Assembly: GCA_020137815.1 (NCBI GenBank)
Contig: CM035353.1
Coordinates: 1 to 64,000 of the forward strand
DNA from: Hormiphora californensis
Lineage: Eukaryota; Animalia; Ctenophora
Reading direction: 5' to 3'
Length of the DNA: 64,000 nucleotides
A program made the position numbers and the translations under genes. Under the pieces are notes generated by a model that was given only the letters and a program-made list of their open reading frames with translations, was not told the origin of the DNA and searched no databases. Each line of letters opens with the position of its first letter. The stretch's first letter is position 1. Positions 52,501 to 55,500 of the stretch are shown here, one piece after another.

Positions 52501-55500
52501 AGAGTGTGTGTCCAGTGTAGTGCTAAGTAGAAGAGAATAATAATAGAAGAAAATATGAAGTGAGATGACGTCATTCGCGGGATGACGTCATTCGAGCCAA
52601 GGGCGCGCTGCGGTCGCACAAAAATTTCCGGCTGATCGACACAGAGAGAGAATGTAAAAATCACCCTACTATGTGAACTGTGTGCCCAAACATACAATAT
52701 AAGTCCTTTTGAATTCACTTTCAAATATCTCCTCCGTGGCTCAACTAGATGATTGATCAGAATCCGCGCTGCCATCCCCGAGGTAGGTGGTTCGATACTG
52801 CCGTCCGCATGTGTTTTGCTCAGCCTAACCATACAATTCCCAAATAATAACATGTTAAGTCCCTTTGAATTCCCTTCCAAACAACAGCCGCATGGCTCAA
52901 ACATGTGATTGGACCATTCACATCTTGCGAGACGTAAGGTCAGAGGTTCGAATCCGCCCGCCACTACCATTTTGCCCGGCAGAGCATCCAGCTCTTGTGA
53001 CAACATACTCCAGTTTAGTCTCATAAATACTCCTGAATTGTAACTATCATAGTCCCGGCGTAGCTCAGGTGGTAGAGCGCCCCCGACAACACGAACAGGG
53101 CCAAGGGGAGAGGGAAGACCGAATCCCGGCTCTGCAAAATTTTTGCTCGGCAGGGTAAAAATTCTTCCCAAAAGAGGGGACCCCATAAAAACTCCAGAAT
53201 GTCCAACCATGGTAGTAACACTCAAACACATCAGACACACCATGATTATTATTAAATACCGGTGTGCTACTGTAGGAGATTGTCGGTCTTGGGGCTGGTG
53301 TCCTGCTCCTGTGGAGTAGATATCCCGGTGTACCACAGTAGAGTCTTGGCCATAGTCGTCGGTCTGGGTTTCCTTTGTTAGCGTGTCCGTATCGTACTCA
53401 GGTTGATGTACCTCAGTGAATTGTAGGTGAGGTGAGGGGAGGCGGGAGGGGGTGGCTATGGTAGGAGCAGAGAAAGCAGGAGCAGAGAAATTGAGAACAT
53501 CATGAGCGCAAAACCTACCCGACGGGGGTGGGTCTGCTAGGGGGATGTTAGGAGCGGGGGCGGGAGTGGGCGCCCCCCTAGCAGCCCGGGTCCTCTTTGC
53601 AGTCATGTACTAGTACAAGCTTGTATAGGTACTGTACAGGGTGTCGTTGTGCAGCTGCAGGTATATCTCGGAAGTAGATATGTACTGGATCAAATCGAGA
53701 GCAGCAACGTAACAACGAGAGAGGGCAGTGTGTGTGTATGTGTCAGTGAAAGTCAGTGTTTCAGCTCATTTTTGCCAACATCTCAGCCCCCGTAGCCTCC
53801 CCCTCTCCTGTGCGAATATCAGGGAGGCTGTGCCCGTTTTAGCCCCCTCCCCACCTCCCGGTTCCGCCACCCCTGCCTTCCGTGAGAGGCCAGAGATAGT
53901 TTCTATATATCGACAAGTAAAATCGGGTCTCCGCCAAGTCAAGAGAATATAACCAGTGTCTGAGATATGTTTGGAGCGCGCGATGTGCCATCTTATAGGT
54001 TGTTAGCGCGTGTCACGCACGCCCCTCGCCATACCAGTGTGGAAATTAATCTTTCAGTGTAACTTCAACAAAATAACAGGCTGAATTTTGTTAATTAATT
54101 TCACTGATTTCACTGTCAAGAACAGGGGTGTAGGAATAGGGGGGGCGACGGGGGCGGCCGCCCCCCCCCCACTTTTTGCCAGGTTCGCCCCCTCACTTCT
54201 GTCACCAACAATCAACACTCACTCCCAAATGCCGAAATCATGACTTTTCGGCTCAAAACCCTAAAAATTTTCTCGGGCTCCGCTGTCGCTCCGCCCGATG
54301 TATGGTAAATGCAGTAGAATAGGTGACTAAATCTTGCTCACAAAAATTTTTCGTGGGCTCTGGCCACCGCTGTAATTGGTCACGTGACTTCGCCCCCTCA
54401 CTTGAAGAATCATTCCTACACCCCTGGTCAAGAACTTACAATCTAATGTCACAGGTTCAAAATCGGATGTTAAAGTGTCTCCTGAGCTTGCCAAGATTAT
54501 TGGTGCTGAGGTGTTACCCATGTCAGAGATTAGCCTTCGATTACACCAGGTTAGTTCAAACACCGGGTAATAAAGAGCTATGAAGCAAGGGTGGCTTTGG
54601 TACCAACCGTTAGGAAACGGTTAGGAAATCGTGCCAACTGATACTATGAGCATAAAACTTCATATTAAACTGTACTAGAAAAATAGTCGTCAATTGGGAT
54701 TTTTCTAATGGTTATATGCCTTGTAGAATTGTATTAATATGTTTAACCCCCCCCCCCCCCCCCGCTACGCGTCCCCCGATAACATATCTGACTTGTTCTC
54801 ACATTGTAGGAGGTTTTGAGTAGGCAGCTCTATGAGGCAGATGACAGGAGATATATCATATGTGATGAAGATTTCAAAGCTGTCTTCAAAAATGAAAAGT
54901 ACGGTAGTTGTTGTGCCTTCCACGCATTGTGTCCCCTACTACCACATTTTCCAATTTCCATATAATATTCTGGCTCCGATTTGATCCCCATTTCCGGTTC
55001 CCATATCGAGTCCTTACTCCCGTTTTGATTCCTATTTCCCGTGATATCAGAGTGAGAGTGACAGCACTGGTTAACCTCTGTAAGAAACACGTTACTAAGC
55101 TGGAAAAGGAGAGCAATCCAAACGGAAAGAAGAAAGGTAATGTTGTACCAATCTTTTGAGCATCACCATGAGTCTTGTTATTGTTAAACAATTTGAACCA
55201 GAACCGCATACTACGATGTCCGTATTAGTTAATATTAGTTAATATATTACTTAATATCATTATTGTTTCAGGTGGTATGTACGGTAAGAAACTATGGCTA
55301 AGCCCAGATTTGGCAGATATTATTGGATTCAATTACATGTCACGGTAAGCCCCACCTCCTCAACATCCTGTCTGGCGCAGCGACCCCATCTGAGCGGACT
55401 GTCAAATGGGGTATGGCGCCGCCATACACACGGTGTCCCTTAAGGAGGTGAAACCTCGGCTAGATAAAGTATTTTGGAGACCGGACCTAGGTTACGTATT

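Follow-up and report, generated by a model that had tools for sequence, protein, structure and literature searches.

The front end of ORF1 in an intact LINE carries, antisense to the coding frame, three units that each combine a TGAATT hexamer, an A box, a B box and a T4/5 run, and beside them lie two palindromic CRE/ATF-type sites. This stretch of ORF1 likely doubles as cis-regulatory DNA of the element, since the imprint of one unit (U3) in a related protein and the double CRE both rarely survive simulated drift. Our main reading, to which we assign a probability of about 0.45, is that the three units and the double CRE form a selected cis module: by attracting TFIIIC, TFIIIB and Pol III it would keep the internal control region of the LINE active.

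The window, by which we mean the whole 64-kb stretch of DNA analysed, is eukaryotic and repeat-rich, and the LINE occupies 7.5 kb of its minus strand as an intact two-ORF element (Table 1). ORF1 is laid out as an N-terminal extension, an S/T-rich linker, an AlkB-like domain, a predicted coiled coil and an SGNH esterase. The intact ORF2 with its APE endonuclease and reverse transcriptase, together with a 3′ tail of 3.1 tandem copies of an 11-nt repeat, identifies the element as an APE-type LINE. Its CCHC-like ORF2 end may point to the RTEX clade, a guess on our part; the esterase by itself does not settle the LINE clade (PMC5408684). Paired arms of the 3′ UTR hairpin are visible in weak hairpin-family matches. 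No terminal direct repeats of the 7.5-kb element were found, nor any convincing target-site duplication around it, the longest matches being 9 nt and implausibly placed. ORF2 shares the frame of ORF1, with a single TAA between them and the ORF2 Met 45 nt past the ORF1 stop (49868-49916, minus strand); readthrough or reinitiation at this junction is possible. The window contains one tRNA gene, tRNA-Asn, and the LINE lies downstream of it in convergent orientation, with 310 nt from the LINE tail to the tRNA-Asn end, unlike TRE3, which inserts 40-150 bp downstream of tRNA genes and shares their orientation (PMC5911963). Judged from this one LINE copy, insertion near a tRNA gene is possible.

Table 1. 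Coordinates of the LINE, its antisense units and motifs, and the neighbouring tRNA gene in the window
Feature	Position	Strand	Details
LINE ORF1	49914..53606	-	1230 aa counted from first Met
Variable N-terminal extension of ORF1	52212..53606	-	about 465 codons up to the V-x-M junction; holds the array and CRE module
ALKBH3-like domain of ORF1	51267..51839	-	Atlas; model pLDDT 82.9; Foldseek ALKBH3 E 2.7e-9, TM 0.65
SGNH/GDSL esterase-like domain of ORF1	49995..50363	-	Pfam Lipase_GDSL_2 E 5.9e-6, 27.3 bits, under the 32.9 cut-off
LINE ORF2	46275..49868	-	APE endonuclease, reverse transcriptase, C-terminal CCHC-like motif
3′ UTR hairpin and 11-nt tandem tail	46052..46186	-	hairpin 46116-46186; tail 46052-46085
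Unit U1	52710..52824	+	TGAATT 52710, A box 52737, B box 52789, T4 52814
Unit U2	52866..52980	+	TGAATT 52866, A box 52893, consensus B box 52945, T4 52970
Unit U3	53034..53151	+	TGAATT 53034, A box 53061, B box 53116, T5 53140
Two palindromic CRE/ATF-type sites	52565..52591	.	ATGACGTCAT, 17 nt apart; only two such 10-mers in the window
GC motif and ETS-like motif	52602..52631	.	52602-52610 and 52624-52631; the ORF1 frame gives QRA and PEI there, and P0001 retains both
Host tRNA-Asn(GTT)	45648..45751	+	gene 45669-45742, TGAATT 45648, T4 45748; 69.1 bits

On re-reading of the sequence, the first-pass annotation of the region proved right in its unit coordinates and in the placing of TGAATT, which starts 27 nt before the A-box T in U1, U2 and U3; in tRNA-Asn (45648/45676) the distance is 28 nt. 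The A and B boxes are 52, 52 and 55 nt apart in U1, U2 and U3 and 45 nt apart in tRNA-Asn, and each T run of a unit is followed by GCYCRGC. Counted from the position that corresponds to +1 of a tRNA to the end of the T run, the units are 88, 88 and 91 nt long. They are spaced by 156 and 168 nt, which preserves the ORF1 frame, and all three point toward the 5′ end of the LINE. This is the layout of a type-2 Pol III unit, with A and B boxes 30-60 nt apart and T4 or more downstream. That the boxes are retained, as had been annotated, held in so far as a generic scan found all three units, but the U3 B box has one mismatch, T55>C (AGACCGAATCC), and the U2 A box is without its distal GG.

The generic scan covered both strands of the 64 kb for TRGYNNANNNG, GWTCRANNC and a downstream T4, with TGAATT left out of the scoring. 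Its five best sites were tRNA-Asn, a minus-strand site at 39706, U1, U2 and U3, and TGAATT stands at 27 or 28 nt in four of these five. TGAATT is also the only hexamer common to the three units at one offset between -60 and -8; the motif was picked post hoc, its per-site frequency is 4.9e-4, and the chance of the match in tRNA-Asn, the one tRNA gene compared, is about 1.5e-3. The earlier proposal of a tRNA-gene-like origin that included the upstream flank is supported. The site at 39706 combines full generic A and B boxes with a T4 and scores as high as the tRNA on the generic boxes. Having neither the upstream hexamer nor a tRNA call, it was taken as chance. Its score shows that single sites can be chance, which lends something to the view that the units themselves are chance look-alikes or else three independent SINE insertions. 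We regard this as very improbable: the three sites fall within 450 nt with equal geometry and with the upstream hexamer of the tRNA, their spacings keep the frame, and neither a SINE tail nor a target duplication was found flanking them. The units also differ from tRNA-derived SINEs in that the flank hexamer is shared and the T run comes straight after the head, and no free copies of a unit were found elsewhere within the window.

Consistent with the annotation, the units are not genuine tRNA genes, as neither ARAGORN nor Rfam RF00005 called a cloverleaf in any of them; Rfam gave no match to any family up to E 5. The acceptor stems pair at only 2/7, 4/7 and 4/7 positions in U1, U2 and U3, in line with the annotation that the acceptor and anticodon stems do not pair, but the remnant arms differ by unit, with the U1 T-stem (5/5) and the U3 D-stem (4/4) still paired. 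RNA folding of the units was no better than that of shuffles (z 0.57, -0.92 and -1.10), no stable hairpin of the pre-miRNA type was predicted, and the unit bodies are about 40-56% identical to one another. These results bear on the alternative that each unit is a small-RNA gene and that the ~90-nt RNA made from it by Pol III works in trans, either as a decoy or RNAi suppressor in the manner of VA RNA and EBERs or as a precursor of the BLV/TMER type. The joint retention of upstream motif and terminator would fit real transcription of RNAs of defined length, additional units would mean a higher RNA dose, and in the ctenophore Mnemiopsis endo-siRNAs are reported to dominate, with multi-mapping clusters that map to transposons (PMC6211395). 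Against it stand the lack of a shared fold or stable hairpin, the divergence of the bodies and the empty Rfam search, and we consider such trans-acting RNAs fairly unlikely.

Retention of the motifs exceeded that of their surroundings, as the annotation had led us to expect. A repeat search paired U1 and U2 only (75% over 56 nt), and in ungapped comparisons anchored on the boxes the units agreed at 57/69 motif positions and at 139/312 other positions. Identical third codon positions numbered 20/24 inside the motifs vs 47/102 outside (p 0.001, the three pairs not being independent). Over the A box the ORF1 residues vary among the units (P-E-L, F-E-P, V-E-P), but the box itself is unchanged in the bases that it has at third codon positions. 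As far as the sequences themselves indicate, the units are probably under selection.

Further evidence came from a relative. Among 7991 scored candidates there was one full-length ORF1 relative, P0001, which is 50% identical to the window ORF1 and has a near-identical companion, P0002; P0001 likewise has an open N-extension, 28-40% identical to that of the window. Because this relative is known as protein only, its boxes are described as compatible with the motifs, not read as DNA. We scanned all collected proteins of at least 150 aa for the residue strings that a unit, antisense or sense, would impose on the coding frame. P0001 and P0002 ranked first (29.4 bits), followed by U2 (27.0) and U3 (24.2) of the window, and the next unrelated score was 18.7; U1 of the window reached only 16.7, below background. 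The imprint in P0001 is that of a single unit at the position of U3. Its spacings, 55 and 27 nt, equal those of U3, the 42 codons align without an indel, and 18/40 residues are shared with U3, 14 with U1 and 10 with U2. P0001 has 49 residues at a place where the window has 136, so that U1 and U2 are absent from P0001. On these comparisons U3 would be the older unit and U1 and U2 a closer pair, and the array is not a simple triplication. The single triplication that had been proposed is unsupported because the relative matches U3 only and U1/U2 form a separate closer pair. Nor did GCYCRGC hold up as a kept motif, having no mirror in the P0001 residues and sharing only TTTT-GC with tRNA-Asn.

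Several null models were compared with this imprint. First, shuffles reached the P0001 score in 0/2000 cases, and in 1/2000 when TGAATT was left out. Second, in simulations of neutral drift without stops, run down to the identity of 17/42 that was observed, the imprint score was kept in 1/5000 one-lineage runs started from the window U3 and in 19/5000 two-lineage runs, under a model with uniform rates that leaves out protein-level constraint and for a U3 block that was chosen post hoc. Third, the NS pair that corresponds to TGAATT was kept in 0.153 of drift runs, and the TGAATT imprint alone is therefore not significant. The U3 block is only slightly more conserved than the rest of the extension (40% identity to P0001 vs 28-39%). 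Residue changes fall where the motifs permit them, such as EL to AP over the A box and NDVI to HDVM over the CRE. The expected conservation in related families was seen at the protein level in P0001/P0002 but did not extend to the distant relatives, where an imprint on either strand was found in 0/13 (lowest p 0.075) by a scan weak enough that the real U1 scores under background. The module would therefore not be needed family-wide.

It might be argued from these data that the units are passengers: ORF1 would have acquired a tRNA gene, or a repeat derived from one, at a site that tolerates insertions, and the copies made there by duplication would now be decaying, with selection only on the open frame and with descent or protein constraint accounting for the shared residues. 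The decayed cloverleaf, the mutated U3 B box, the variable and unrelated extensions of the family, the distant relatives without an imprint and a U3 block whose identity barely exceeds its surroundings all agree with such a history. It sits poorly with the motif positions, third codon positions included, that were kept while the rest drifted, with drift nulls of 0.0002-0.004, and with a relative that has equal spacings and no indel over 42 codons. We judge it unlikely.

The double CRE and the GC and ETS-like motifs beside the array were absent from the first-pass annotation. The CREs, both perfect palindromes, lie 150-165 nt upstream of the U1 start on the plus strand, and the other two motifs, the second of which we take to be ETS-like, lie between the CREs and U1. 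The two CREs fall in different codon phases, and P0001 retains both imprints at the same spacing; among 90 proteins the double-CRE residue pattern occurred in the window ORF1, P0001 and P0002 only. Drift runs kept the double-CRE imprint in 17/20000 cases and all four motifs in 0/20000, the motifs having been chosen post hoc. The only other CRE octamers of the window are three copies of TGACGTCA within 32 nt (24924-24955), which closely precede a long palindromic element at 25044-25250. CRE sites have been reported to boost type-2 Pol III transcription from a position of about -50 (PMC7279448); the CREs here are farther away and may therefore serve the Pol II promoter of the LINE as well.

We propose that an ancestor of both families captured one tRNA gene with its flank, now U3, and that U1 and U2 were later gained in the window lineage or lost in the P0001 lineage. 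What selection favoured would have been the signals in the DNA, as opposed to the RNA, because the bodies between the boxes share no fold. TFIIIC, TFIIIB and Pol III bound in antisense orientation would hold the internal control region of the LINE open. Pol III would also yield ~90-nt antisense RNAs, with the terminators preventing long antisense RNA in an animal group in which, to judge from Mnemiopsis, endo-siRNAs dominate (PMC6211395), and the useful product would be Pol III occupancy, the ~90-nt RNA being incidental. A more far-reaching version is that the LINE lineage has assembled, on the antisense strand of ORF1, a portable and amplifiable array of genuine Pol III transcription units, equipped with a CRE enhancer and an upstream element specific to the host, and that it evades small-RNA silencing by means of Pol III occupancy or of the ~90-nt RNAs; this we advance more tentatively, as possible but doubtful. 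The same orientation toward the 5′ end of the LINE could instead mean that the units are a brake, which by convergent Pol III transcription or by antisense RNA that supplies endo-siRNA would reduce transcription of the LINE and keep damage to the host within limits, and Pol III/Pol II collision has been shown for BLV (PMC4992882). However, tight terminators cap the antisense length, activator-type CREs are co-conserved with the units, and self-limiting elements are expected to be outcompeted (PMC5408684), which makes a brake quite unlikely in our estimation.

The extension that would hold this cis module was examined across the family. Over 469 codons its minus-strand frame contains 0 stops (19.5 +/- 4.3 expected), and the other five frames have 18-29. 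Dual use of the DNA is supported. The frame opposite the units is open throughout as annotated, but this is not special to the units: of 87 ORF1 relatives found with HMMER, 14 long ones, chosen by eye for a V-x-M-like junction, also have open N-extensions (239-558 aa), so that the open frame is a family trait. Most of these 14 extensions contain a hydrophobic segment, and none could be aligned to that of the window except that of P0001. The V-x-M junction of the window extension was likewise placed by eye. P0010-P0072 and the window share the feature of long, open, mutually unrelated hydrophobic extensions that end at V-x-M, and the extension may act as a membrane anchor that has a processing site, or V-x-M may mark a second start codon. 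Two close ORF1 fragments carry labels beginning 'eukprot:sb/', which we take to be gene models of the ctenophore Pleurobrachia, and this makes a ctenophore the likely host. In the ALKBH3-like domain the HxD...H iron ligands are absent, with no HxD in 28 aligned rows, and the distal His is present in some relatives and absent in the window ORF1; the domain as modelled is likely inactive. The literature searched held no description of a LINE ORF1 with an AlkB-like domain, or with an AlkB-like domain, an esterase and a hydrophobic extension together; AlkB has been reported in orchid Gypsy elements (PMC9289625). A metagenome scan with the ORF1 core gave 150 pattern matches, none of them confirmed. 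With ORF2 it gave 30, and the single confirmed match was a 47-aa generic endonuclease piece, which we set aside as unrelated. A protein search for N-terminal fragments, which spanned lengths of 30-72 aa, yielded none and carries no weight.

Other elements were observed in the window. Two facing reverse-transcriptase-type ORFs at 17832-21421 resemble, by eye, LINEs of the restriction-endonuclease type. On the minus strand, a second apparently intact LINE with a CCHC ORF1 and a 1170-aa ORF2 lies at 26297-30284, and a broken CR1/L2-like LINE lies at 30753-35511, where the hydrophobic leader of ORF2 ends in an NPGP motif that we assume to be 2A-like. A 2.9-kb segment is present in two copies of 95% identity (1-2917 and 14969-17934), and long near-perfect palindromic elements occur at 38721-39359 and 55428-56917.

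The proposed module bears on the question of how an autonomous retrotransposon maintains the activity of its internal promoter when the host tries to silence it, and it would indicate that a tolerant ORF1 extension can double as regulatory DNA. An antisense Pol III array can be mutated silently within ORF1, which makes the silencing question directly testable. If the more far-reaching version is true, it also implies that an early-branching animal has a tRNA promoter element fixed at an upstream position. For tRNA genes to be preceded by a fixed TGAATT would be unusual, because the tRNA flanks of animals were reported to be without a common motif in a study of seven bilaterian genomes (PMC3082873).

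The array appears to consist of retroelement-borne Pol III units of a kind already known, and what would be new is the LINE host and the antisense arrangement within ORF1; no LINE whose ORF1 contains antisense Pol III units was found in the literature searched, which comprised titles and the starts of abstracts, with Repbase reports, subscription journals and supplements outside its scope. In its protein-coding part the element resembles the esterase-bearing LINEs (CR1, L2, RTEX), which have an ORF1 with coiled coil and SGNH esterase, an ORF2 with APE and RT, and a tandem-repeat tail (PMC3905857, PMC5408684), but it differs from them in the extra open N-extension with hydrophobic segments and the likely dead ALKBH3-like domain. 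tRNA-derived SINEs and SINE-derived genes such as 4.5SI also have A and B boxes without a cloverleaf, and in the 4.5S, 7SL, vault and EBER genes these are supplemented by a TATA-like box upstream and by a CRE (PMC7279448); SINE copies, however, have random flanks and a LINE-derived tail, whereas the units here have a flank motif in common, stop right behind the head and are mobile only as part of the LINE. The TRIMp3 elements Cassandra, Helenus and Ajax likewise keep the promoter and not the structure, but they are LTR elements of small size that are not autonomous, and the Pol III promoter presumably serves to transcribe the element itself (PMC10886601). The present element is not a short non-coding one with a Pol III promoter in two LTRs; it is a 7.5-kb autonomous two-ORF LINE with antisense units that have their own terminators inside coding DNA. 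MHV68 TMERs, adenovirus VA and EBV EBER genes are further cases of clustered tRNA-type Pol III units in mobile genomes (PMC12498455, PMC7279448), although their RNAs are structured and act in trans, and the units here are without fold support. The closest likeness is to the Pol III miRNA cluster of BLV, in which tandem type-2 units with degenerate but retained A and B boxes lie inside the body of a retroelement, convergent with a Pol II transcript (PMC4992882, PMC12498455), and which is bound in vivo, bears active marks and collides with Pol II (PMC4992882). BLV differs in encoding pre-miRNA hairpins and in that its units face the antisense promoter of the 3′ LTR (PMC4992882, PMC12498455), whereas the units described here reside in a LINE, have no predicted hairpin, lie antisense across the ORF1 frame and possess an upstream flank of the tRNA type. 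By analogy, the LINE array would work most like the BLV cluster and, if the more far-reaching version is true, it is the LINE counterpart of that cluster, set in DNA of triple use as protein-coding sequence, Pol III gene and enhancer.
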